59,735 nucleotides of DNA. Source: an uncultured bacterium. GTDB lineage: Bacteria > Verrucomicrobiota > Kiritimatiellia > RFP12 > UBA1067. The stretch spans positions 1 through 59,735 of the forward strand of contig CACWJS010000003.1 of NCBI GenBank assembly GCA_902761275.1, given 5' to 3'. Both the position numbers and the translations under genes were made by a program. Under the pieces are notes generated by a model. That model saw nothing but the letters and a program-made list of their open reading frames with translations. It had not been told where the DNA came from and made no database searches. Of the stretch, positions 13,176 to 51,632 are shown in pieces. Position 1 is the stretch's first letter; every line of letters begins with the position of its first letter.

Positions 13176-15449
13176 TCAGCTGCAGGGTTGCGGCGTGACG
13201 GCAAGGCGTTCTGCGAGGGTGGTGCGGCGCTCGCGCACGACGTTCGTGTCGATCGCGCGGTTTACCGCGTATGGAACGCCGATGAGAAGGACGAGCTTCT
13301 TTCCGCGCGTGATGGCGGTGTAGAGGAGATTGCGCTGCAGCATCACGTAGTGCTGCGTGTGAATCAGGACGATTACCGCCGGGTATTCCGACCCCTGCGA
13401 CTTGTGGATCGTCGTCGCGTAGGCGAGCACGAGTTCGTCGAGATCTCCTGCGTCGTACTTTACAGGCCGTCCATCGAATGTGACGATGAGCGAGCGATCC
13501 GTCGGGTCGACCGCCTTTATAAACCCGACGTCGCCGTTGTAGACATCCTTGTCATAGTTGTTCCGTAGCTGCATTACGCGGTCGCCTACGCGGAACGTCG
13601 TTCCGCCGCGGATCAAGGCCGCGCCCGATGGGTTGAGCGCCTTCTGCAGCTCGAAGTTGAGACTCTCCGTGCCGAGAAGATTGCGGCGCATCGGCGTGAG
13701 CACCTGCACGTCCTCGAGCGGGTCGAGCCCGAACTTGCGCGGAATGCGCGTCGTCATGAATTCGATTGCGCGCCTAAGGCACTGCTCAGGGTCTTCGCAC
13801 CGGACGAAGTAAAAGTCGGTATCGCCGCTTCTTATCTCGAGCGGCTCACCCGCGTTCACGTGGTGGGCGTTCGTGACGATGAGCCCGCCAGCGTCTTGTC
13901 GGAAGATCTGGTCGAGGCGCGTAAAGGCGATATTGCCGGACTTTATGAGATCGCCAAGGACATTCCCTGCGCCTACGCTCGGCAACTGGTCCGTATCGCC
14001 GACGAGCACTACCGCCGCAGTGGATGGAATCGCCGATAGCAGATCGTTTGCAAGCTTGATGTCGATCATCGACGTCTCGTCGAAGATAAAGACGTCGCCT
14101 TCAAGCGGGCTTTCCTTGTTGAACGTGAACTTGTTCGTTACGGGATTCCACTTGAGAAGACGGTGAATCGTCTGCGCCGCTGCGCCGACCGACTCTGACA
14201 TGCGTTTCGCTGCGCGACCCGTCGGCGCGGCGAGGACTACTTTAAGTTTTTTCGCGCCATAGATGTCGACGAGCGCGCGGATTATCGTCGTCTTGCCGAC
14301 GCCCGGCCCGCCGGTTATGATGGAGAACTTGCTCGACAGGCACTGCTCGAGAGCGTTCGCCTGCTGCGCGGCGAGCGAGAAGCCCGCTTTTTGCTCCCAC
14401 CATGCGACGGCCTTGCCCGCGTCTACGGGCGTGAAGCCGGGGAGGGAATCCCTTATTCGCTTTACATGCGAGGCCGTCTCGCGCTCGGCCCACCAAAGCG
14501 AACGCAGGTAGATGCGGCGGGGAGAGGTGTTTGAGTGTTTGAGTGTTTGAGTGTTTGAGTGTTTGGGTTGGTTGGCTGGTAGTGGGATTGGCTGGCTGGC
14601 GGGCGCGGCTTCGCTTTCCGCGATGACGCGGCCTTCGGCAATTTCCTTCTCAAGCGCTTCGCCAAGAATCTCGGTCGGTATTTCGGTGAGTTCGTTCGCG
14701 TGGAGAAGGAGGTCGTTCTCGAAAGTCCAGCAGTGTCCTGAGTCCTCTGCCTCCGTCTCGAGCGTGTAGGAAATTGACGCGCGCGCGCGAAGGGGCGAGT
14801 CCTTCGGGATGCCGACGGAGAGCGCGATGCGGTCGGCGGTAGCAAAGCCGATTCCCCAGATGTCGCGGCAGAGCTTGTAGGGGTCGGCCTTTACGATTGC
14901 TATTGCGTCTGGACCGTATTTGCGGACGATCTTCGTCATCTTCGCTATCGAGATGCCGTAGGTCTGGCCGAAGATCATATTCTCCCTCAGGGTCTCGTTC
15001 GCATGCCAGCTTGCGCGTATCTGCTCGATCTTCGCTTTGCCGAGCTTTGGCACTTCGACGAGCCGTGCCGATTGGTGGGAGAGGACATTCAGGGTGTCTT
15101 CGCCGAAGGTTTCGACGATGCGCTTTGCGAGAACCTTGCCGACGCCCTTTATGAGTCCCGATGCGAGATAGCGCTCTATGCCGACGAGGGATCTCGGCGC
15201 TACGCAGACGATTGACTCGGCCTTGAACTGTCGTCCGTGGACCTTGTCGGTCACCCACGAGCCGGTCGCGGAAATCTCCTCGCCTTCCCATACCGCCTGT
15301 GCCTTGCCGACGACGGTTATCTCGTTTAGTTGCCTGAGAGCGAAGCCGGAAGGGAGTTCGACATGGAGGACGGTGTAGCCGTTCTCGTCGTTGTGGAATA
15401 CGACCGACTTGATCGTTCCCTCGACTGTCTCGCTCGCTTCATCTGCCAT
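13176..15449 (-). CDS. recD2: ATP-dependent RecD-like helicase RecD2
   Basis: IKGVG HhH, GGPGVGKTT, DETSM, GDTDQLPSVG, YATTIHKSQGSEY. Confidence 0.96.
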   Translation of the reverse strand: MADEASETVEGTIKSVVFHNDENGYTVLHVELPSGFALRQLNEITVVGKAQAVWEGEEISATGSWVTDKVHGRQFKAESIVCVAPRSLVGIERYLASGLIKGVGKVLAKRIVETFGEDTLNVLSHQSARLVEVPKLGKAKIEQIRASWHANETLRENMIFGQTYGISIAKMTKIVRKYGPDAIAIVKADPYKLCRDIWGIGFATADRIALSVGIPKDSPLRARASISYTLETEAEDSGHCWTFENDLLLHANELTEIPTEILGEALEKEIAEGRVIAESEAAPASQPIPLPANQPKHSNTQTLKHSNTSPRRIYLRSLWWAERETASHVKRIRDSLPGFTPVDAGKAVAWWEQKAGFSLAAQQANALEQCLSSKFSIITGGPGVGKTTIIRALVDIYGAKKLKVVLAAPTGRAAKRMSESVGAAAQTIHRLLKWNPVTNKFTFNKESPLEGDVFIFDETSMIDIKLANDLLSAIPSTAAVVLVGDTDQLPSVGAGNVLGDLIKSGNIAFTRLDQIFRQDAGGLIVTNAHHVNAGEPLEIRSGDTDFYFVRCEDPEQCLRRAIEFMTTRIPRKFGLDPLEDVQVLTPMRRNLLGTESLNFELQKALNPSGAALIRGGTTFRVGDRVMQLRNNYDKDVYNGDVGFIKAVDPTDRSLIVTFDGRPVKYDAGDLDELVLAYATTIHKSQGSEYPAVIVLIHTQHYVMLQRNLLYTAITRGKKLVLLIGVPYAVNRAIDTNVVRERRTTLAERLAVTPQPCS
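14527..14600 (-). repeat. in-frame 8-mer tandem array (TCAAACAC x~5 plus degenerate units) inside recD2
   Basis: Translated as ASQPIPLPANQPKHSNTQTLKHSNT. Confidence 0.9.
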
Positions 15450-21724: not shown

Positions 21725-23095
21725 ATGTCGAAACGACCAGAATTGCTTATCACGTCCGGCCCGATGTCCGGCACGCGATTCGAGGTGGGGCCAGGGGGCG
21801 TGCGTCTCGGCCGCTCCTCCTCGAACGACGTGAGCATACCCGACGAGGAGCTCTCCCGCAACCACTGCCTCTTCGAGCAGTCCGGCGAGGCGGGGATACG
21901 CGTGACGGATCTCGCGAGCGCAAACGGCACGTTCGTCAACGGCGAGCAACTTGGCTCTGATTCCCACGGGCTCAAGGTGGGCGACTCGATCGAAGTCGGC
22001 TCGACCGCGATCAGCGTAATCGGCGAGGATGCGTCTCTTGCATCGCGTCCTGCTGGCGCCAAGGTCGCCGCGACAATCGACCTTGGCCTTGGCTCGGCTT
22101 CCGCCGCAGCGCCGCAGGGAGAAGTCGCGTCGCGCAAGCCGTCCAAGGCGCAGGGCGGCCGTCAGCGCACGATGATTGCCAATGTCCTCTGGATAGTCGC
22201 CGCGCTTACGGTGGCTGCGGCGATAGCCGTCGTCCTCTGCGCCCCGCGCGAATCCGAGAAGCCAATCGCTCCCGTCGTAGAGGAGAAGCCCGAGCAGAAA
22301 CTCGTCTCGCTACGATACGAGAAGGTCGAGGCAGACGCCTCGCGGGTGTTCAGCTATAGGATGGAAATCGACGAGTCTGGGGTCCTGCGCGTCGCGTTCG
22401 ACGACGTGCCTGGCGAGAACCGCCACGTCGACAAGAAGGCGAAGCTTTCCGACAAGGCGAAGAAGAGGATCCTCGAGATTCTCGAAAAGCCCGGGTTCGC
22501 CGCGCTCGAGGACGAGTATGTCGGTTCGAGCGTGGAGGACGAAAACGCTCTCAAGAGCTTCAGGATCCGCGTCGTCCGCTGGAACAGCGTCAAGGACGTT
22601 CTCGTCGAGAACACTCAGGAGCCCGACGCCTTCCGCGAAGTGAGGGATTTGCTCGAGGCGTTCTCCCGGAACGAGCTCGGCATCTGGGCTATACAGTATT
22701 CGAAGGAAAAGCTGATCGAGCTCAGCGACGAGAGCGCGAAGGTCGGCGATTCCAAGTGGGACGACCGCGAGGTCGAGTACGGCAACCTGAGCGCCGCCGT
22801 CAAGGCCTACAAGGACGCGCTCTTCTACCTTGAGACGATCAATCCGAAGCCCGACGGCTACGCGGAGATAAAGGAGAAGCTCGCGCGCACCGAGGAGGAG
22901 CTCAAGCAACGCTACGAAGACCAGCGCTTCCTCGCTGACAAGGCGATGAACCTCGGCGACTGGGAGGCGGCGCAGAACGAGCTCAAGATACTGTGCGAGC
23001 TTGTGCCGGACAGGGACGACCCGCGCCACGCCGAGGCCAACGCGCGTCTCGTCGACGTCGAAAACCGCATGAAGAAGGCGAGGGGTGGAAAATGA
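21725..23095 (+). CDS. FHA-domain membrane protein with helical C-terminus
   Basis: LGR..LSRNH..DLASANGTFVNG; one TM helix. Confidence 0.88.
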   Translation: MSKRPELLITSGPMSGTRFEVGPGGVRLGRSSSNDVSIPDEELSRNHCLFEQSGEAGIRVTDLASANGTFVNGEQLGSDSHGLKVGDSIEVGSTAISVIGEDASLASRPAGAKVAATIDLGLGSASAAAPQGEVASRKPSKAQGGRQRTMIANVLWIVAALTVAAAIAVVLCAPRESEKPIAPVVEEKPEQKLVSLRYEKVEADASRVFSYRMEIDESGVLRVAFDDVPGENRHVDKKAKLSDKAKKRILEILEKPGFAALEDEYVGSSVEDENALKSFRIRVVRWNSVKDVLVENTQEPDAFREVRDLLEAFSRNELGIWAIQYSKEKLIELSDESAKVGDSKWDDREVEYGNLSAAVKAYKDALFYLETINPKPDGYAEIKEKLARTEEELKQRYEDQRFLADKAMNLGDWEAAQNELKILCELVPDRDDPRHAEANARLVDVENRMKKARGGK

Positions 23096-36623: not shown

Positions 36624-38006
36624 ATGAAAGTCAATGACCATATTTCCGTCCGCTATCTCCTCGCAATCGCGGGGTTAGGCGGGCTTCTCTACGGCATCGA
36701 CTTTGGCGTCATCGCCGCAGCGTCTCCCTACATCAAGGCACTCGGACTATTCACCGACGCCGAGCTTAGTTGGGTCGTCGGAGCAGTCCTCTTCGGCGGC
36801 ATCGTTTCATCGCTTACGGCGGGGATGCTTGCCGAGCGGTTCGGCAGGAAACGCATGATTGTCGCTGCGGCTGCGCTCTTCTTCGTGGCTGTTCCTACTG
36901 TCTGCCTTTCGGAAAAGTCTCTTTGGACGATGCTTTTCGGACGCGTCCTCCAGGGCATGAGCGCCGGATACATGGCCGTCGTCATGCCGATGTATCTTAC
37001 CGAGACCCTGCCGCCGGAGATTAGAGGACGCGGCACCGGCGTTTTCCAGTTCTGCCTCGGGCTTGGCCTTGTCGCGGCTGCTGCTGTCGGATATTTTGTC
37101 GCGAAGCTGTACGGCGCGGCGGACGCGCCGGCGGAGCTTGTCGCGGATGCCGCTAAATCCGCTGCGTGGAAGATGAACTTCTGGTGGACGCTCGCTCCTG
37201 TTGCGGCGCTTTTTTTCGGCAGTCTGCGGCTCCCGGAAAGCCCGGTGTGGGAGAAAAGGGTAAAGTGTGGGAGTGGAGGAGTGAGGGAGTGTGGGAGTGG
37301 AGGAGTTAACTCACCCACTCACCCACTCACCCACTCCCTCACTTTGAATTCCCGCCGCTATGTCGTGCCTTTTCTCTTGGCGGTCGCCGTCCTGACGCTC
37401 AACAAGACGACGGGGATGAGTTCCGTCACCAGCTATTCGGTGATGATATTTCAGAAGGCCGGTTTCGCCGGAGCTCTTGGGAATGTTGGCGACTTTGCGA
37501 TCAAGCTGACGAATCTCGTCGTCACGCTCGTCGCGGCGGCGATCATCGACCGCGTTGGCCGCACACGGCTCTTGAAGATCGGCACGGCGGGCATGACGCT
37601 CGGGCTTGCGGCAATTGGCGGCGTCCTTCTCGCCATTGAGCGTTTCGGAGTCGCTGCGAACAGCGTGACAGGGATTTTCTGTCTCGCGGCGTTTTTCGTG
37701 ATGCAGGTTTTTTACGCGCTGGGTCCCGGCATCTGCGTGTGGCTAGTCCTTTCCGAGCTGATGCCTTCGCGCATCCGCGCCAATGGCATGTCGATTGCGC
37801 TTTTCATGAACCAGTTCGTCGCGTGGGGGCTCGCGTCGTCGTTCCTGCCGTGGGTCAACGCCTGGGGATGGGCGTCGATGTTCTTCTTCTTCGCCGTTAA
37901 CGGAGTAATCTACTTTATTGTCTCGCTCTTCATCCCCGAGACCAGGGGCAAGACGCTGGAGGAGCTTGAACATCTTTTTGATAAAAAGCTTGGAGCTGAG
38001 AGCTGA
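36624..38006 (+). CDS. MFS sugar porter
   Basis: GGLLYGID.G, ERFGRK, PESP, DRVGR, PETRGKTLEE. Confidence 0.95.
   Translation: MKVNDHISVRYLLAIAGLGGLLYGIDFGVIAAASPYIKALGLFTDAELSWVVGAVLFGGIVSSLTAGMLAERFGRKRMIVAAAALFFVAVPTVCLSEKSLWTMLFGRVLQGMSAGYMAVVMPMYLTETLPPEIRGRGTGVFQFCLGLGLVAAAAVGYFVAKLYGAADAPAELVADAAKSAAWKMNFWWTLAPVAALFFGSLRLPESPVWEKRVKCGSGGVRECGSGGVNSPTHPLTHSLTLNSRRYVVPFLLAVAVLTLNKTTGMSSVTSYSVMIFQKAGFAGALGNVGDFAIKLTNLVVTLVAAAIIDRVGRTRLLKIGTAGMTLGLAAIGGVLLAIERFGVAANSVTGIFCLAAFFVMQVFYALGPGICVWLVLSELMPSRIRANGMSIALFMNQFVAWGLASSFLPWVNAWGWASMFFFFAVNGVIYFIVSLFIPETRGKTLEELEHLFDKKLGAES
37264..37343. repeat. in-frame 8-mer hairpin element in the MFS central loop
   Basis: AGTG(T/G/A)(G/A)GG x5 - AGTTAACT - CACCCACT x3 - CCCTCACT; translated CGSGGVRECGSGGVNSPTHPLTHSLT. 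Confidence 0.9.
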
Positions 38007-38056
38007 GAGCTTAGAGCTCAGAGCTTGAAGCTTAGAGCTTAGAGCTGGGAGCAGAG
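37987..38056 (+). repeat. AGCTNNG heptamer array 1 (~10 units)
   Basis: agcttgg agctgag agctgag agcttag...; supplies the MFS stop codon. Confidence 0.95.
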
Positions 38057-38067
38057 GAGAAGTGAGT

Positions 38068-38430
38068 ATGATAAAGAGTTATAGAGAACTGAAGGTTTGG
38101 CAAAAGGCCATGGACTTTGCAGAACATGTGTACAAGGTCCAGAGGCGCTTTCCTGCCGAGGAACGCTATGGCCTCTGCGACCAGCTGCGCCGTGCAGCAG
38201 TTTCCATTCCTTCTAATATCGCGGAAGGTCGTGGCAGGGATACGGCTAAGGACTTTTCGCACTTCCTGTCACTTGCCCGGGGCTCTTTAAATGAAGTCAC
38301 AACTCAGTTGGAACTGGCGGTTCGGCTTGGCTATCTTGATTCCGGAAGCGGCCTCGATGAGGAATCCCAGGAGATCGGGAAAATGCTGAATGCCATGATA
38401 CAACGTCTTAAACAATCAAAACAACCCTAA
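38068..38430 (+). CDS. four helix bundle protein (23S rRNA IVP / Avd-like family)
   Basis: SYRELKVWQKAM, FPAEERYGLCDQLRRAAVSIPSNIAEG, ARGSLNE. Confidence 0.95.
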   Translation: MIKSYRELKVWQKAMDFAEHVYKVQRRFPAEERYGLCDQLRRAAVSIPSNIAEGRGRDTAKDFSHFLSLARGSLNEVTTQLELAVRLGYLDSGSGLDEESQEIGKMLNAMIQRLKQSKQP

Positions 38431-38454
38431 GGAAAGGAAACGCTTAGTGACGGT

Positions 38455-38496
38455 AGCTCTCAGCTAAAAGCTAAAAGCTCCAAGCTCTAAGCTGAA
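38455..38496 (-). repeat. heptamer array 2, inverted (~6 units)
   Basis: agctctc agctaaa agctaaa agctcca agctcta agctgaa; complementary to the other arrays. Confidence 0.9.
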
Positions 38497-38501
38497 AAAC
38501 C

Positions 38502-39530
38502 ATGATAACTCAAACATCAATTAGCTACTACGGGCTCAACTACGTAGAACACGCCGAGGCGGACTTCAAGGAAATGAAGGCGCACGGCGTCACCCAGGTG
38601 ATTCTCGCAGTGACGGAGTTCGACTTCGACTTCTGGCGGCCGAACATCCCCGCCATCGTCGACAAGGCGCACGAGCTGGGGCTCCGCGTCCTCATCGACC
38701 CGTGGGGCAACGGCAAGTACTTTGGCGGCGAACAGGTCTCGAAGTTCCTTCAGGACAACGTCGAAAACCGCCAGGTCTCGGCCTTGACCGGCGAGAAGCT
38801 TCCCTACGCCTGCTTCAACACGAACAGCTATCGCGACTACTTCAAGAACTTCTGCACGACGCTCGCCCGCGAAGCGAAGCCCGACGGCTTCTTCTGGGAC
38901 GAGCCGCACTACGCCTTCCCGAAGGGCATCGCCTCCATCACTGGCGGCGTTGCGGACGACTGGACGTGCTATTGTCCCGTCTGCCGCAAGCGTTTCGAGG
39001 ACTACTATGGCTACCCGATGCCGCGCTACATGACGAACGACGTGAAGCAGTTCCGCTGGCGCGAGGCGCTCGTTGTCCTCTCCGAGACCTCGAAGGCGCT
39101 GAAGGAGATCGACCCGAAGCTGGAGATCACCTGCTGTGTCCACGCGACGCAGAACGGCTACTACGTCTCGGAGTATCGCGGCTACGACAATTGGGATATG
39201 GTTGGCGCGTGTCCTTATTTCGACGTGTTCTCGACGACGATCATCAACTGGGCGCTTCCCGAGGACTTCTTCCTCGACATCACGCGTCGCACGGTTGCCA
39301 TCGCCAAGAAGTACGGCAAGCAGTCCGAGCGCTGGCTAATGGGCTACTACAAGCAGCCGAAGGACTGGAACCAGGTTGCACGCTGGGTCGACCTCGCCGC
39401 CAAGGAGGGCGTTGACCGCCTTGCCGCCTGGACGTACCGCGGTGGCTACGGCACGGTCGTCGGCGCGCCCGATGCGCTTAAACTCTGGGATACAATTGGT
39501 GAGAACTATAGGAGGGTATTGGGGATTTAA
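38502..39530 (+). CDS. putative TIM-barrel glycoside hydrolase-like protein
   Basis: DGFFWDEPHY and CYCPVC motifs reminiscent of GH42-like barrels; no signal peptide. Confidence 0.6.
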   Translation: MITQTSISYYGLNYVEHAEADFKEMKAHGVTQVILAVTEFDFDFWRPNIPAIVDKAHELGLRVLIDPWGNGKYFGGEQVSKFLQDNVENRQVSALTGEKLPYACFNTNSYRDYFKNFCTTLAREAKPDGFFWDEPHYAFPKGIASITGGVADDWTCYCPVCRKRFEDYYGYPMPRYMTNDVKQFRWREALVVLSETSKALKEIDPKLEITCCVHATQNGYYVSEYRGYDNWDMVGACPYFDVFSTTIINWALPEDFFLDITRRTVAIAKKYGKQSERWLMGYYKQPKDWNQVARWVDLAAKEGVDRLAAWTYRGGYGTVVGAPDALKLWDTIGENYRRVLGI

Positions 39531-39592
39531 GCTTGGAGCTTAGAGCTGAGAGCTTAGAGCTTGGAGCTGAGAGCTTAGAGCTTGGAGCGGGG
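39530..39592 (+). repeat. heptamer array 3 (~9 units)
   Basis: Starts inside the TAA stop. Confidence 0.95.
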
Positions 39593-39600
39593 AGATTGGA

Positions 39601-40302
39601 ATGTCGGAATATTTGGAGAGAATTGTAGATGTCCTGCAGAGGGTTGAAGCGGAAGAGGCGGCGGCGCTTTCTTCTGCTTCGGACGCCGTTGCTGACGTAA
39701 TCTGCCGCGACGGAATCATCCATGTCTTCGGCTGCGGTCACTCCCATCTGCCTGCGCTTGACGCGTTCTATCGCGCTGGCGGGCTTGCATGTGTGTCGCC
39801 AGTCCTTGACGTTGACCTTATGCTGCATGACGGCGCGGCGAAGTCGAGCCGGATGGAGAAGATGCCGGGGATCGCGTCGGAAGTATATCGCCGCCACGGC
39901 GTGAAACAGGGCGACCTGTTCGTCGTCATATCGGCGAGCGGCAAGAACGCCGCGCCTGTGGAGATGCTTCGCGCCGCGAAGGCGGCAGGGGTAAAGACTG
40001 TAGCCGTTTCCTCGTCGGCGTACAAGCCGCATGGCGGTGTACTTCTGGACGAGGCGGACATTGCTGTCGATTGCAAAGTGCCGCATGGCGACGCAGTGAT
40101 CGACGTAGGCGAGGCAAAGATGGGCGGGCTTTCGACGTATGCCTCGCTTTTCATACTCAACACTGCGCTGATCGAAGGTGCGAAGAAGGCACTCGCGAGA
40201 GGCGTAACGCCGCCAGTCTACACGAGCGGCAACGTAGACGGCGGAACGGCGCGCAATGTCGCGCTGGAAGAGCGGTACTTCGGGAGGGTTAAGCATTTGT
40301 AG
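39601..40302 (+). CDS. SIS-domain sugar-phosphate isomerase-like protein
   Basis: FGCGHSH, YRAGGL, ISASGKN, SGNVDGG. Confidence 0.9.
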   Translation: MSEYLERIVDVLQRVEAEEAAALSSASDAVADVICRDGIIHVFGCGHSHLPALDAFYRAGGLACVSPVLDVDLMLHDGAAKSSRMEKMPGIASEVYRRHGVKQGDLFVVISASGKNAAPVEMLRAAKAAGVKTVAVSSSAYKPHGGVLLDEADIAVDCKVPHGDAVIDVGEAKMGGLSTYASLFILNTALIEGAKKALARGVTPPVYTSGNVDGGTARNVALEERYFGRVKHL

Positions 40303-40433
40303 CTTAGAGCTTGGAGCTTAGAGCTTGGAGCTTGGAGCTTAGAGCTTGGAGCTTAGAGCTTGGAGCTTAGAGCTTAGAGCTTGGAGCTTGGAGCTTAGAG
40401 CTTAGAGCTTAGAGCTTGGAGCTGGGAGCTTAG
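40301..40433 (+). repeat. heptamer array 4 (19 units)
   Basis: AGCTT(A/G)G repeats starting inside the TAG stop. Confidence 0.97.
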
Positions 40434-40434
40434 A

Positions 40435-41283
40435 GTGGGAGAGAATGTGGAAAAGAAACGCGTTAAGATAGCTGTGGTCGGCATGGTCGGCAAGTCCGTC
40501 TTCATGGAAGTCGAACGCTTCCACGAGGGTGGCGAGACTGTCATGGCTAGGTCGTGCCACGAAGATTGGGGCGGGAAGGGCTTCAACCAGGCCGTCGCGG
40601 CCGCGCGCCAGGATGCCGACGTTGCGTTTCTGGGCGCATGTGCGGAAAGAGACCGCGCGGCCATACTGTCTGACTTGGCTGGCGAGGCCGGCCTTTCGCT
40701 TAAGTTAGTTGGTCGCGACATCAACTCGGCGCTCGCGACGATCATTACCGACACGGCTGGGGCAACGCAGGTGACCTGCTGCGCAGGCGCGGAACTTGAG
40801 CCGGCCGACGTAGACGCGTTTGTCGACGAGATTGCATCCGCCGACATTCTTCTGCTGAGCAATGAGGTGCCGGAATCCGTAAACCTGCGCGCTTCCGAGA
40901 TAGCGGAGCAAAGGGGCGTAAGAATCGTGATGAACCCTGCGCCGTCGCGTCCGCTGCCAGACGTGCTGAAGCGTCGTGTCTCGCTCTTCACGCCAAACGA
41001 GTTCGAGACGGCGGGTCTTGGAGATGCCCCTGGCGAGGTGGTGACGACGCTTGGCGAGAAGGGCTGCCGCATCCGCTCGACTGGCGAGGTTGTCCCGCCT
41101 GCTCCCAGCGTCAAGGCGGTCGACGCCACTGGCGCGGGCGACACGTTCAACGGCGTTCTCGCGGTGCGCATTGCGGAAGGCGCGCCGCTTGCCGAAGCCT
41201 GTCGCGCCGCGAACGATGCGGCGGCCAAAGAGGTGTCTGTCCGCTACGTCTTGCCTGCTATACCGTATCGTAGAAGATCATGA
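40435..41283 (+). CDS. PfkB/ribokinase-family sugar kinase (start uncertain)
   Basis: GGKGFNQAVAA, NPAP, TPNEFE, DATGAGDTF. Confidence 0.9.
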   Translation: MGENVEKKRVKIAVVGMVGKSVFMEVERFHEGGETVMARSCHEDWGGKGFNQAVAAARQDADVAFLGACAERDRAAILSDLAGEAGLSLKLVGRDINSALATIITDTAGATQVTCCAGAELEPADVDAFVDEIASADILLLSNEVPESVNLRASEIAEQRGVRIVMNPAPSRPLPDVLKRRVSLFTPNEFETAGLGDAPGEVVTTLGEKGCRIRSTGEVVPPAPSVKAVDATGAGDTFNGVLAVRIAEGAPLAEACRAANDAAAKEVSVRYVLPAIPYRRRS

Positions 41284-41301
41284 ACATATTGGAGACTGTC
41301 T

Positions 41302-42849
41302 ATGCACAATGCAATTAAACTCGCTGCGGTTTGCACCGCTCTTCTGCCGTTCGCCGCGTTCGCCGGGAATAAGGCGAATCCCGACGCAATAGAACTTGCG
41401 CCGTTGCCCATGCCGGTGCAGTTCAAGGCCGACATAGACAAGCCGGTAGCTTTCGACGCATCCACGACGGTCGCTCTTGAATGTCCCGACGCCAAAGGCG
41501 CGGAATGGCTCGCCGTTCATTTCAGGGAATGGTACGGAGACCAGTCGCCGAAGGTCGTTGCCTCCAACCTTTCAACCTTTCAACCTTTCAACCTTTCAAC
41601 CTCCCCGGAGGCCTATTCCATGGCATCCGGCGTGTCGGGAGTCAAGATTGCTGCTCGCACTCTTGCGGGCATTAGGTGGGCGGCGTACACATTGCGGCAG
41701 CTCGCCATTGCGAAGCGCGGCACGTTCAAGACCGAGGGACGCATACTGCCGACGCTGGAGATTTCTGACTCTCCGCACCTCGCGTTCCGCGCAGTCCATC
41801 TCTGCTGGTTCCCCGAGGTCAGGCCGCAGCAGATGGAACGCGCGATTCGCCTCGCGGCGCTTCTCAAGTTCAACTACGCGATCATCGAGCCGTGGGGCAT
41901 GTACGCGAGCGAGAAGCATCCGTGGTGGCATTGGCCGAATCCGACGATGACGAAGGAGGAGGTGCGTCGTCTCGCGGCGATAGGACGCGACCTCGGCATC
42001 ACGCTCATCCCGCAGATCAACGCGTTCGGGCACGCCTCGTCGTCGCGCGGCTGCACGCTTAAGCACATGGTGCTTGACCTCTCCCCAGAATACGAGCCGC
42101 TGTTCGAGCCGGGCGGGTGGAACTGGTGTCTTACCAACCCCGAGACACAGCGGGTGCTACGCGAGCTGATTGCCGAGATGCACGAGGATTTCGGCAATCC
42201 ACCGTTCTTCCACCTCGGATGCGACGAGGCGCAGCCGCCGACGTGTCCGGAGTGCCGCAAGCGGCCGTACGGCGAACTCGTCTGCGAGCACATCGTCGGT
42301 CTCGCCGACTTCGTCAAGTCACGCGGCGCGAGGGCGATGATCTGGCACGACATGCTGCTTGAGAAGGGCGATCCTCGCTGGAAGGGCTTTGTTCACTTTG
42401 GCTCGAAGACGACTGCGACGCTCGCAGACACGCTTTCCAAGGACGTGATCATCTGCGACTGGCAGTATTCCTACGGCAACATGAAGGAAGCTCGCGGCGA
42501 TTGGCCGACGATGGGCTATTTCAAGGAGAAGGGCTTTGCCGTCGCAGGATGCCCGTGGATGAACTACAACTCGATGAAACCGATGGCCGACTACATCGCC
42601 AAGATCGGCGGTTTCGGTTTCATTGAGACGACGTGGCACCATTTGCGCGGCGACGACTGGATCAACATGTACAGATACGCCTCGGCCGCCGCGTGGGGGA
42701 CTTCCGTTCCGCAGACTCCGCCGATGTACAACACCCCGTTCGGCAATGCCCTGCGTCTCGTAGGACACGACATGAAGACGACGGACTATCTTGACACGGG
42801 TCACCTCAACTACCAGGTGCCGCCGGGATGGTGGGTGGATAACAATTAG
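41302..42849 (+). CDS. GH20 beta-N-acetylhexosaminidase-like protein, secreted
   Basis: Signal peptide; ISDSPHLAFRAVH; HLGCDE catalytic motif; IWHDM. Confidence 0.88.
   Translation: MHNAIKLAAVCTALLPFAAFAGNKANPDAIELAPLPMPVQFKADIDKPVAFDASTTVALECPDAKGAEWLAVHFREWYGDQSPKVVASNLSTFQPFNLSTSPEAYSMASGVSGVKIAARTLAGIRWAAYTLRQLAIAKRGTFKTEGRILPTLEISDSPHLAFRAVHLCWFPEVRPQQMERAIRLAALLKFNYAIIEPWGMYASEKHPWWHWPNPTMTKEEVRRLAAIGRDLGITLIPQINAFGHASSSRGCTLKHMVLDLSPEYEPLFEPGGWNWCLTNPETQRVLRELIAEMHEDFGNPPFFHLGCDEAQPPTCPECRKRPYGELVCEHIVGLADFVKSRGARAMIWHDMLLEKGDPRWKGFVHFGSKTTATLADTLSKDVIICDWQYSYGNMKEARGDWPTMGYFKEKGFAVAGCPWMNYNSMKPMADYIAKIGGFGFIETTWHHLRGDDWINMYRYASAAAWGTSVPQTPPMYNTPFGNALRLVGHDMKTTDYLDTGHLNYQVPPGWWVDNN
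41563..41602 (+). repeat. in-frame TTCAACCT x5 inside the GH20 gene
   Basis: Translated SNLSTFQPFNLST. Confidence 0.92.
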
Positions 42850-42903
42850 CTTGGAGCTTAGAGCTGAGAGCTTGGAGCGTAGAGCTGAGAGCTTGGAGCT
42901 GGG
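42848..42903 (+). repeat. heptamer array 5 (8 units)
   Basis: Starts inside the TAG stop. Confidence 0.95.
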
Positions 42904-42941
42904 GAATTTCTGATTGGGAAATTAAAACTGAAAGAGAGAAC

Positions 42942-43694
42942 ATGAACATAAAGAAGATGAACAAGGGGCTCGACTTCCTGCGCGAGAAGTACGGAGCCAA
43001 GAATGGTGTGATAACCATCAAGGACGGGCATTGCTTCGTCGGAGCGACGCCGCTTTTGCCCGGGCGCATGGAGCGCAAGATCGTGGAACTCAAGAAGATG
43101 ACCGAGAACGGCACGCTCGAGGGCGTCTCGACTCTGCGCTTTGCGTCGTTTGCGTCGAAGGGCGTTAGTTTGGAGGCGATGCTCGCGAAGGAACTTGACC
43201 TCGCCGCGTATCTCGGCGCGTCCGACGTGGTGCGCGTGATGGCCGTTGCAAACGGCCCTGCAATCAACGTCCTCGCCAAGCTTGCCAATGACGTGAATGT
43301 ATCCGTCGAAATCGGCGCAGGGCTTCCGAAGGGCGAAGCCGGATATGACCGCCACGAGATTATCGCGAAGCGCGGCGTTGCCTGCGACCAGACGGTTGAC
43401 ACCCACACCAAGCATGAGTCAATCCGTTGCTGGGGGTCGGACGGCATGGAGGAATATACCGACGTCGATACCGAACTCTTCGGGCTTTCCTACGATGAGA
43501 TCTGGAATGTCCGCGCGGCATTCGCGCTTCTTCAGGGGCGCGCCGACGCGAAGGTCTGGAAGGCCGCTTGGGCGAAGGCAACGAAGGCCGCCAAGCTCGC
43601 GTTCGCAGCTGACAAGTCGAAGGCGGCGAAGACCATCGCCGTAAAGAAGGGCCTTGACACCAACCAGTCGATAAAGGTTGCAGAAGTCAGATAA
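42942..43694 (+). CDS. hypothetical protein resembling a Gfo/Idh/MocA C-terminal domain without the Rossmann fold
   Basis: ELKKMTENGTLEGV and ELDLAAYLGASDVVRVMA resemble the family's C-terminal half. Confidence 0.55.
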   Translation: MNIKKMNKGLDFLREKYGAKNGVITIKDGHCFVGATPLLPGRMERKIVELKKMTENGTLEGVSTLRFASFASKGVSLEAMLAKELDLAAYLGASDVVRVMAVANGPAINVLAKLANDVNVSVEIGAGLPKGEAGYDRHEIIAKRGVACDQTVDTHTKHESIRCWGSDGMEEYTDVDTELFGLSYDEIWNVRAAFALLQGRADAKVWKAAWAKATKAAKLAFAADKSKAAKTIAVKKGLDTNQSIKVAEVR

Positions 43695-43779
43695 AGTTGA
43701 AGTGTAGAGTTCAAGTTCGAGAAAGAAAGATTCCACTCTCCAACTCCAACTCAAAACTCCAACTCGTCTCAATCCTGTC
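43695..43779. repeat. intergenic AGTTGA/CTCCAA hairpin element
   Basis: Shares 36 nt with 11174-11209; begins right after the TAA stop. Confidence 0.8.
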
Positions 43780-43800
43780 AAAAAAGAAAGACAATATTTT

Positions 43801-44883
43801 ATGAAACCTGTAAAAATCGCGATGATGGGCATGACCCACGGCCATACCCGCAAGTACTACCAGACGCTTCTCGACAACCAGAAGCTCGACTGGGTCGCTT
43901 CTTGCGCCCAGGACAAGGACGCCAAGAAGACCTACGAGCTATACAAGACTGGCGTTCCCTGCTACCTCGATCCCGAGGAGATGTATCGGGAGCATCCTGA
44001 CATCGAAGCCGTCGTCATCGCCTCGGCGAACGACCGCCACTTCGAGCAGATGAAGTGGTGCGCCGAGAAGGGCATCCACATCCTCTCGATGAAGATCCCG
44101 ACCTTCGACATGAAGGAGTACGACGAGATGATCGCCATGTGCGACAAGGCGGGCATTGTTTGCCAGATCGAGCTCGAGATGCACTACAACTCCGTCGTGC
44201 GCCGTTTGGAGAAGCTTGTGAAGGAAGGTGCCATCGGGAAGATAAAATCCGTACAGGCTACGAACATCACACTTTCGCCGGTGTGGGCGTTTCCGTGGCA
44301 GGGCGACCCGCAGGCGAGCTTTGGCAAGGTCGAGCACCTCAAGAAGGGCGACCCGCGTTACAAAGGCGGCGCTCTTTGCGACCACCCGCATATCTTTGAC
44401 CTTATCCGCCATCTGACCGGCAGCAGCTTCGACTACATCTACGCCGAAGTCGCGCCGAACCTGCGCGACGGGCTGAAGGTCGAGGACATGCTCATGGCCG
44501 TCGGCAAGATGAAGGACGGCACGGCATTCCTCTTCGATCCCTCCTGGAGTCGCCTCGAGGAGAAGCTCGCGGTGCCCGGTCCGGGCTGGGAGCGCTTCCC
44601 CAAGCGCATGGAGGTGAATCTCACCATCACCGGCGACCGTGGCGCGATCTCCTGCGACTGCTTCGGTCCGAACGTCTACCACAACGGCGCGCCGAATGAC
44701 CGCTACACCGTCCAGTACACGTACTTCGACGAGTGGGTTGGGCTCATCGACGAGTTCGTTGACTGCATCCGCAACCACAAGACGCCGCTCATCAACCTCA
44801 GGTGGCACAAGGAGACTATCCAGGCGATGCTCGGCTGCTACGAGTCGATTCAGACTGGCAAGATCGCAAGAGTGGGAGGGTAG
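43801..44883 (+). CDS. Gfo/Idh/MocA oxidoreductase
   Basis: KIAMMGMTHGH, IEAVVIAS..DRH, GGALCDHPHIFDL. Confidence 0.9.
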   Translation: MKPVKIAMMGMTHGHTRKYYQTLLDNQKLDWVASCAQDKDAKKTYELYKTGVPCYLDPEEMYREHPDIEAVVIASANDRHFEQMKWCAEKGIHILSMKIPTFDMKEYDEMIAMCDKAGIVCQIELEMHYNSVVRRLEKLVKEGAIGKIKSVQATNITLSPVWAFPWQGDPQASFGKVEHLKKGDPRYKGGALCDHPHIFDLIRHLTGSSFDYIYAEVAPNLRDGLKVEDMLMAVGKMKDGTAFLFDPSWSRLEEKLAVPGPGWERFPKRMEVNLTITGDRGAISCDCFGPNVYHNGAPNDRYTVQYTYFDEWVGLIDEFVDCIRNHKTPLINLRWHKETIQAMLGCYESIQTGKIARVGG

Positions 44884-44968
44884 AGCTTGGCTTGTCCGCC
44901 GTAGCTCCGTTAGAAGCGAAGGCGGAAGCTTAGAGCTTAGAGCTTGGAGCTTTGAGCTTAGCGCTGAA
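44884..44968 (+). repeat. heptamer array 6, interrupted by a REP-like palindrome
   Basis: agcttgg + TCCGCCGTAGCT-N8-AGCGAAGGCGGA + 5 more units. Confidence 0.88.
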
Positions 44969-49336: not shown

Positions 49337-49392
49337 AGGTTGAAAAGTTGAAAGGTTGAAAAGTTGAAGAGTTGAAGAGTTGGAGAGTTGAA
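49337..49392 (+). repeat. (A/G)(A/G)GTTGAA 8-mer array (7 units)
   Basis: Reverse complement of the TTCAAC(C/T)T arrays in the GH20 gene and folP. Confidence 0.92.

Positions 49393-50874: not shown

Positions 50875-51632
<758 letters not shown>

Follow-up and report, generated by a model that had tools for sequence, protein, structure and literature searches.

Tandem heptamer repeats in the operon spacers of cyanobacteria, known as short tandemly repeated repetitive (STRR) sequences, were reportedly first described in 1990. They occur for instance between hupS and hupL, are capable of forming hairpins and have been suggested to act in transcript stability or translational coupling (PMC2670836). 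Tandem heptamers placed just past stop codons were catalogued from 2009 onward in cyanobacteria, Xanthomonas and Beggiatoaceae, and are published but unexplained (PMC4692102, PMC4679880). Rehm et al. (2015) described G-rich heptamers, GGGAATC in Xanthomonas and GGGGA(C/T)T in Nostoc PCC 7120 (PMC4692102), and MacGregor (2015) reported TAACTGA direct repeats in marine Beggiatoaceae and in some Cyanobacteria and Bacteroidetes (PMC4679880). The 23S rRNA intervening sequences of Coxiella burnetii and Leptospira consist of an S23p open reading frame (ORF) enclosed in a stem loop with terminal inverted repeats; they are regarded as selfish and are cut by RNase III (PMC4990558). In the present work, we analyze a DNA stretch of 59,735 nt (hereafter the window; GenBank contig CACWJS010000003.1, forward strand) from an uncultured bacterium of the Verrucomicrobiota, in which six heptamer arrays occupy a single operon and two of them enclose, as inverted arms, a small gene of the S23p family, PF05635. 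The arrays belong to the known class of stop-anchored heptamer repeats. We give an even chance to the proposal that those lying downstream of the PF05635 gene are solo-arm offspring of this cassette, tolerated as spacers between a stop codon and the next ribosome-binding site.

Eight co-directional genes, which may be co-transcribed, carry all six AGCT(T/G)(A/G)G arrays (hereafter AGCTKRG) on their coding strand within 7 kb. According to Pfam, they encode in order a major facilitator superfamily (MFS) sugar transporter, a PF05635 protein of 120 aa, a 342-aa protein of no family, a SIS-domain protein, a PfkB kinase, a GH20-like hydrolase, a 250-aa protein of no family and a Gfo/Idh/MocA oxidoreductase. 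The repeated unit is AGCT followed by TAG, TGG or GAG, in sense orientation in five arrays and inverted in one. Array 1 (37987-38056; this and all following features of the operon are on the plus strand) is made of about 9-10 units of AGCTTGG, AGCTGAG or AGCTTAG, for which Tandem Repeats Finder reports 9.1 copies at 37993-38056 and a row of 21-nt period from 37987; it takes the place of the transporter's C-terminal tail and provides its TGA stop codon (38004-38006). The PF05635 gene follows (38068-38430; Pfam E 1.3e-40) and then array 2 (38455-38498), the sole inverted copy, composed of AGCTCTC, AGCTAAA, AGCTCCA and AGCTCTA (5.1 copies at 38462-38497) and separated by 3 nt from the ATG at 38502 that opens the following gene. 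Array 3 (39530-39588; 8.4 copies with a 21-nt super-period) extends from the TAA of the 342-aa gene (39528-39530) toward the SIS-domain gene, and array 4 (40301-40435; 19.3 copies) from the TAG of the latter (40300-40302) toward the PfkB kinase gene. Array 5 (42848-42900; 7.6 copies) starts from the TAG of the GH20 gene (42847-42849), and its first 26 nt are identical to array 3. Array 6 (44881-44965) is a composite in which the TAG of the last gene (44881-44883) and an AGCTTGG unit precede a 36-nt hairpin insert (44891-44926) and 5.6 further copies (44927-44965).

All six arrays are imperfect (78-89% matches). Four of the sense arrays overlap a stop codon and the fifth, array 6, begins as a single unit directly after one. 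Arrays 1, 3 and 4 stop short of the start codons at 38068, 39601 and 40447 by 11, 12 and 11 nt, respectively, and a GGAG-type motif sits in each of these intervals. The initial annotation of this DNA, made by a model from its letters, had described five sense arrays of about 10, 9, 19, 8 and 6 units at stop codons, three of them running up to the next ribosome-binding site or start, and a single inverted array; the positions and copy numbers returned by Tandem Repeats Finder fit this description, array 2 being of the reverse-complement type. It had also stated that the unit forms no array elsewhere in the window, and indeed the six are the only AGCT-type arrays among the 62 rows obtained when the whole window was searched.

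A cassette (37987-38498) laid out as an rRNA intervening sequence has arrays 1 and 2 for its inverted arms. The minimum-energy fold of the sense strand pairs array 1 with array 2 (z -3.7 for the whole region). Flank complementarity, measured by local alignment of the flanks scored against shuffles with z > 5 as the threshold, reaches a score of 43 and a z of 13.7 at this locus. Duplex energies had been tried as a flank test and offered no discrimination, shuffled flanks being nearly equally stable, which is why local alignment was used instead. The GC content of the cassette (0.48-0.52) is lower than that of its flanks (0.59-0.63), and its gene was skipped by a codon-usage gene caller. The encoded protein matches PDB entries 2gsc (E 2e-27; an entry of 5 chains) and 2rld, and is mildly basic, with 19 K/R vs 16 D/E residues.

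PF05635 is a very large protein family, and the same layout is widespread in it. The source genome carries three full and one partial PF05635 genes; all three full ones are flanked by inverted arrays, each with a unit of its own. Complementary flanks are present at 24 of the 29 testable loci of the genus (30 loci, one of them without a flank; the window locus is included), at 23/29 loci taken from elsewhere in the phylum (other families, orders and classes), and at 63 of 77 testable loci drawn from at least 15 phyla or classes. The best array adjoining the gene has a period of 7 in 63/68 cross-phylum loci. Plasmid relatives of the window protein come overwhelmingly from heterocystous cyanobacteria (22 of 50 records are from Nostoc), and heptamer arrays adjoin the PF05635 gene in nine of the ten cyanobacterial plasmid loci examined. 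The arms follow a fixed order, G-rich then C-rich, in 9/9 close pairs of the source genome, 24/24 in the genus, 21/23 in the phylum and 56/63 across phyla. This order is invariant under reverse complementation and therefore uninformative on gene orientation. Avoidance of Rho, which is encoded here, was entertained as a general cause of the order and dropped because cyanobacteria, said to lack Rho (PMC12642595), show it too.

Several loci of this survey deserve a separate mention. On cyanobacterial plasmids of Anabaena sp. 90 (locus L325), Pseudanabaena galeata (L330) and Picosynechococcus sp. PCC 7003 (L329), PF05635 genes and heptamer arrays are located within CRISPR operons, between cas6 and cas4 or between cas10/cmr2 and cmr3; the flanking arrays of the P. 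galeata locus are direct (AAAGCTA / AAAGCCA), not inverted. A distant cassette from another class of the phylum (L231, genome G307) has AAGCTTA/AGAGCTT-like arms similar to the window unit. In the source genome itself, the densest array cluster noticed lies on contig C125 (7130-11044), where one full and one truncated PF05635 gene are found 3.4 kb apart among 11 arrays (AGGAGTC, CTCCAA, ACGCAGAG, CTAACCC).

The same operon was compared in relatives of the same genus, whose operon proteins are 60-97% identical. The PF05635 gene is absent from the MFS junction in all six of them (G003, G017, G019, G006, G020 and G064); in relatives the MFS gene ends in ...ERKRK* with an ATGA stop/start overlap, which two of the six have at this junction. 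The junction corresponding to array 3 contains AAAGTGT repeats in G003, CTAGAAAC-type repeats in G019, or none. That of array 4 measures 2-20 nt and is devoid of arrays in G003, G017 and G006, the TAG and AGTGG flanks being kept around the insert, and no array is found at the array 5 junction of G003, G017, G006 and G004. AGCTKRG arrays are missing from every orthologous junction of the relatives, which instead hold spacers of 2-20 nt, other units (AAAGTGT, CTAACCA, CTCCAA or CTAGAAAC-type), hairpins of other units or nothing. This comparison of sequences indicates that the AGCTKRG arrays were recently gained and that the cassette arrived as a DNA insertion between the gene of the transporter and the one after it.

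Whole-genome analysis of the source organism (3.43 Mb in 256 contigs, a fragmented metagenome bin 88.8% complete) with Tandem Repeats Finder placed these arrays in a wider context. The AGCTKRG family counts 11 arrays, six of them inside the 7 kb of the operon and five on other contigs, and a pattern of three AGCTKRG units followed by AGCT has 42 matches in the genome vs 0 for the control read backwards. The unit had been annotated as confined to the surroundings of the PF05635 gene, described there as a four-helix-bundle gene; this does not extend beyond the window, the five additional arrays being located on contigs without such a gene. They resemble those of the operon in lying in spacers between co-directional genes, sense G-rich and at the upstream stop. 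The composite array 6, with its 36-nt GC hairpin, has a 92% identical copy on contig C40 (around 22593-22668), again just after a stop codon, and this recurrence demonstrates that blocks are copied between loci.

Stop anchoring is not peculiar to this family either. The source genome contains 538 arrays in which a 6-9 nt unit is repeated 3.5 times or more, and the 482 that have at least 4 copies fall into 130 unit types. High-quality arrays, defined by a score of at least 50 and a period of 6-8, number 211 and display a median strand asymmetry |G-C|/(G+C) of 0.96. Array positions were related to genes called by a crude in-house codon-usage caller (2398 genes, 86.5% coding), so that the counts depend on rough gene boundaries. 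Between co-directional genes, 67 of 125 sense G-rich arrays begin at most 3 nt from the upstream stop or overlap it, which bears out genome-wide the earlier proposal that arrays start at stop codons; among those with free room of 20 nt or more, 37 of 90 are stop-anchored vs 4.3 expected from uniform placement. Sense C-rich arrays are stop-anchored in 11 cases out of 84. Stops in all three frames are offered by 60 of the 125 sense G-rich arrays. Spacers contain 82 sense G-rich vs 45 C-rich arrays, and the proportion is reversed inside genes (39 C-rich vs 18 G-rich), where stops have to be avoided; 62 of the 211 high-quality arrays lie deep within long reading frames and keep the frame. The 'punctuation' of stop codons is therefore a trait of the whole array class and not of this operon.

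Several observations tie the dispersed arrays to cassettes. The most similar PF05635 proteins have similar arm units, mostly in unrelated flanks. Units are nearly genome-specific: the AGCTKRG pattern is present in 3 of 101 genus genomes, and GGTGCAG, the arm unit of a cassette in G074, in only one of 101, where it occurs at the cassette and at no fewer than eight other loci. In the source genome, 255 of 402 dispersed arrays (63%) differ by no more than one edit from the arm units of the three cassettes that it carries, and arms taken from other genomes match these arrays at a mean of 7.8% and a maximum of 55%. The 12 genus genomes without a strong PF05635 match yielded one high-quality array in 465 kb, and 16 genus genomes with such a match, sampled away from the PF05635 genes, yielded 12 in 519 kb. 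Over these 28 genomes, array density follows PF05635 copy number with a Spearman coefficient of 0.60, or 0.58 once genome size is removed. An exact CTCCAA-array pattern run over 301 genomes of the phylum was too strict to be of use, giving five matches even in the source genome. The link to the four-helix-bundle gene put forward in the initial annotation is thus real at the level of arms, of genus- and phylum-wide layout, of unit specificity and of copy-number trend, and the idea holds in spirit, each unit having a four-helix-bundle gene of its own. As a general rule in this genome, however, it does not take the proposed form of repeat types clustering around their own paralogue: same-family neighbors are found 21 times in direct and 24 times in inverted orientation vs about 16 and 15 in permutations, and three full and one partial genes stand against 538 arrays.

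Under the explanation that we favor, the six arrays would constitute one strand-asymmetric short tandem repeat family belonging to the PF05635 cassette. On the operon transcript, the two arms could close into a long imperfect stem around the small PF05635 gene. The four downstream arrays and the five on other contigs would be solo copies of the G-rich arm, and the direction of descent may have run from cassette to solo array. Such copies may be made by block copying at the DNA level, whether by template switching, conversion or cassette-linked transposition, acting more often nearby than far off. The arrays would overwrite variable C-terminal tails while supplying a stop of their own, and would persist just past the last constrained codon, the only permissive place in a tight junction, because nothing else there is dispensable. 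A C-poor sense array could be nearly harmless at this place and perhaps useful, since, with almost no C, it can encode any stop codon, and it brings TAG or TGA in three frames and GGAG ribosome-binding motifs, which may affect translation. With too few C it would neither fold stably on itself nor mask the next ribosome-binding site, and these properties would fit the excess of G-rich sense arrays in spacers. The 'scars of local hopping' suggested by the initial annotation come close to this explanation.

A number of observations weigh against this proposal. An array-2-like relic (AGCTAAAAGCTCTATGCTCTAAGCT) is present at the MFS junction of G064, where the gene is absent; an array could therefore predate the gene at this place. 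More generally, a cassette that inserts into an array already in place could adopt its unit, which would reverse the direction of descent. G064 has at least 12 AGCTKRG arrays and, in its assembled contigs, no cassette with such arms. Of three arm units examined, one, AGATGGTT from a cassette in G007, is found in one of 61 genomes at the cassette only, with no dispersed copies. In genomes other than the source, 2 of 24 arrays match their own arms vs 1.8 expected, an underpowered comparison given the 24 arrays. The genomes correlated above are kin and incomplete bins, so that the coefficients overstate independence. The enrichment of same-family neighbors is weak, and the local burst in the operon is therefore an exception. 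We know of no catalytic activity of a four-helix bundle able to move DNA. The source genome does encode five Y1_Tnp-like proteins of 330-380 aa with a weak Y1 (IS200-like) domain (contigs C57, C100, C139, C22 and C23), none of whose genes is flanked by arrays; genes of this kind are commoner in array-rich genomes of the genus (16 matches in five genomes) than in array-poor ones (2 in five) and are a confounder of array load. Finally, arm mismatches are G-U and A-C in equal numbers (55:55), and this parity therefore gives no sign of selection on pairing of the sense-strand RNA.

The last observation bears also on an RNA switch by alternative pairing, in which the C-rich arm at 38455-38498 would pair with any one of the five G-rich arrays and so set RNase III sites or loop out genes, tuning expression. 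The arms pair in the predicted fold, all arrays are on one strand of one apparent operon, and RNase III is known to cut the stems of PF05635-bearing rRNA intervening sequences (PMC4990558). However, in the predicted fold the C-rich arm pairs with its nearest partner alone, the mismatches lack the excess of G-U over A-C, and the five arrays outside the window have no inverted partner nearby. We regard such a switch as very unlikely.

Hairpins built from other units are found in the same operon. One of them, a pair of inverted octamer arrays (GGAGTGGA / ACTCACCC; 37264-37336, fold z -7.3), is translated in frame as part of the MFS transporter, whose central cytoplasmic loop it encodes. In G003, G019 and G064 the corresponding loop also folds as a hairpin, made of different units, and no significant hairpin was detected in those of G017, G006 and G020. 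Another, a degenerate AGTTGA.../CTCCAA hairpin array (43695-43765), separates the 250-aa gene from the Gfo/Idh/MocA gene; at this junction G003 and G017 have hairpins of other units and G019, G006 and G032 have none. In both sets of orthologous hairpins, the arms remain complementary while their units change wholly. These cases are instructive with respect to polymerase slippage, according to which the arrays would be ordinary long simple sequence repeats (SSRs), the PF05635 gene an unrelated passenger preferring such sites, and the shared unit a product of gene conversion between neighbors. Heptamers are the over-represented class of long repeats in bacteria for which slippage related to the polymerase footprint has been proposed (PMC4692102, PMC4679880), and sense-strand stop anchoring has already been reported in Xanthomonas and Nostoc (PMC4692102). 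Array length and sequence differ among close relatives in our data as in published ones (PMC4692102), a point in favor of slippage. Slippage alone, however, does not place one unit at 11 loci or copy a hairpin-bearing composite to another contig, and it leaves unexplained the complementarity of arms maintained through unit change, the fixed G-rich-then-C-rich order and the almost complete lack of arrays in those genomes of the genus that are without PF05635. We therefore hold slippage with a passenger gene to be unlikely.

A regulatory role for the protein itself may be envisaged by analogy with TRAP and CsrA. A ring of five PF05635 four-helix bundles, as in solved relatives, could bind the 7-nt-phased arrays, as RNA or single-stranded DNA, and regulate both its own gene and the array-bearing junctions. 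The retention of period 7 beside the gene family across phyla suggests a molecular ruler; arm units are specific to each cassette and follow protein similarity, array load follows PF05635 copy number, and 63% of the dispersed arrays match the arms of three cassettes. The solved relative 2gsc, with five chains in its entry, has been described as a homopentamer (PMC4990558), and binding by a regulator was proposed for the TAACTGA repeats (MacGregor 2015; PMC4679880). Set against these points are the 130 unit types for three or four PF05635 genes in the genome, the mildly basic character of the window protein and the arrays of G064 that have no matching cassette. The lack of conservation of the arrays at orthologous junctions would also be odd for regulatory sites. 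Neither TRAP (TrpBP, PF02081) nor CsrA, the known oligomeric RNA-binding regulators looked for, has a match in the 88.8% complete source genome. Binding tracks of this sort appear rather unlikely to us. A diversity-generating retroelement composed of Avd and a reverse transcriptase was considered separately and rejected: the only reverse transcriptase is group II intron-like and encoded on another contig, and the bAvd match falls below the cut-off.

The order of the operon genes is reshuffled among species of the genus (loci L013-L019; G003, G017, G019, G006, G020 and G032), with breakpoints at gene junctions, and in G006 the operon is split into two places 37 kb apart. Perfect octamer arrays are also encountered inside reading frames: CAACCTTT in 4.8 copies within the GH20 frame (41565-41602) and GTGTTTGA in 4.9 copies at 14527-14565, inside a long ORF of the minus strand. 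Gain or loss of a single copy in either would cause a frameshift. The arrays could accordingly be imagined as a recombination or contingency device, same-sense arrays providing homology for operon reshuffling or acting as an expression switch through their copy number. With lengths of 40-135 nt, the arrays are adequate RecA substrates for homologous exchange, and the variable gene order and the perfect in-frame octamers also speak for such a device. Breakpoints would, however, fall at gene junctions in any case, none of these arrays is found in relatives whose gene order differs, and imperfect repeats are less prone to slippage. Moreover, the six AGCTKRG arrays lie between a stop codon and a ribosome-binding site, rather than in a reading frame or promoter as in contingency loci, and cannot shift a frame. 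We find such a device extremely improbable.

Other parts of the window also contain arrays. An ORF at 50876-51345, missed by the gene caller, resembles dihydropteroate synthase (folP) as judged by eye only and holds two in-frame C-rich arrays (51103-51138 and 51291-51343). The GTTGAAAA and TTTCAACC arrays (49339-49392 and 51103-51138) are inverted relative to each other at a distance of 1.7 kb. Between them lie genes for RNase HII and a thioredoxin-like protein as well as the beginning of the folP-like ORF, and their relation is probably a coincidence between two common families. A scan of the operon for promoters and terminators gave results at chance level. DNA sequencing runs from cattle rumen and gut contain about half of the words sampled from the stretch, which points to cattle rumen or gut as the home of the bacterium. 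When metagenomes were scanned with a 17-mer of the SIS gene, 79 loci were recovered; five of them are related and belong to other species (68-86% identity), and no strain of the source species was among them.

Returning to the solo-arm proposal, stop-anchored heptamers and a PF05635 gene occur together in one operon of the window. The dose relation between array load and PF05635 copies, the nearly genome-specific units shared by arms and dispersed arrays, and the fixed arm order connect solo arrays as well as arms with the gene family, and they add genome- and unit-level evidence to the idea that scattered arrays descend from cassettes or depend on them. Two open questions become one, namely whether the PF05635 protein binds its own repeat or helps to copy it. 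In practical terms, the arrays rewrite protein C-termini, supply stop codons, lie in frame in genes such as those of the MFS transporter and the folP-like protein, and lengthen operon spacers; programs that call genes or predict operons should be prepared for them. A bolder generalization would make PF05635 cassettes the autonomous members of a pan-bacterial mobile class whose gene-less offspring are the heptamer arrays, STRR, GGGAATC and TAACTGA included. The five-fold ring would recognize its own 7-nt unit and direct block copying after stops with the G-rich strand first, and copying in this sequence would in turn account for the G-rich-then-C-rich order of every hairpin. We consider this generalization improbable as a whole.

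Among known elements, the REP/BIME-RAYT systems (repetitive extragenic palindromes, bacterial interspersed mosaic elements and REP-associated tyrosine transposases) combine a Y1 transposase gene bracketed by inverted short repeats with further copies of these repeats scattered gene-less after stop codons. The present system is alike in having a gene bracketed by inverted repeat copies and gene-less copies in post-stop spacers. It differs in that the gene encodes a four-helix bundle instead of a Y1 transposase and the repeats are tandem arrays of variable units instead of a fixed palindrome; the Y1-like genes of the source genome, being free of flanking arrays, do not fit the REP/BIME-RAYT type.

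The cassette shares with the 23S rRNA intervening sequences a PF05635/S23p frame within a stem loop, stem-forming terminal inverted repeats and presence or absence as a block. It is not an intervening sequence proper: its host is a protein-coding sugar-utilization operon, its arms are heptamer arrays rather than a unique 28-bp stem (PMC4990558), and solo arms are scattered in the genome. The arrays, for their part, have the tandem 7-nt units, the stop-anchored position in sense spacers and the variability among relatives that characterize long SSR and STRR heptamers. Like STRR, they are 7-bp tandem repeats in operon spacers; STRR differ in being found in heterocystous cyanobacteria as a few named units, and the accessible part of that account makes no mention of PF05635 in connection with them (PMC2670836). 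In the literature searched, which lacked most subscription journals, we found no published link between PF05635 and heptamer repeats. The words 'S23', 'helix bundle' and 'intervening sequence' are absent from the accessible text on TAACTGA (PMC4679880). Those arrays likewise have forward-sense stops in three frames, and 13-14 sets overlap the upstream stop and run to the next start; reverse-sense copies are tolerated in reading frames, and both mobility and regulator binding were considered (PMC4679880). They differ from ours as one unit shared by distant phyla, with 2-6 copies, almost no inverted pairs and anchoring at the start codon (PMC4679880). The repeats of Rehm et al. are also 7-nt sense arrays, for the most part between co-directional genes, at most 50 bp from the upstream stop or over it, closer to the upstream gene, variable among close relatives and in some cases arranged as inverted pairs (PMC4692102). 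Those repeats represent one G-quadruplex-prone unit per genome, and the accessible portions of the paper mention no PF05635 link (PMC4692102); here, 130 types of 6-8 nt coexist, most of them without G runs, each cassette has a single unit family, and one operon shows a local burst. A cassette of this type may explain the heptamer repeats of bacteria that have long lacked an explanation.

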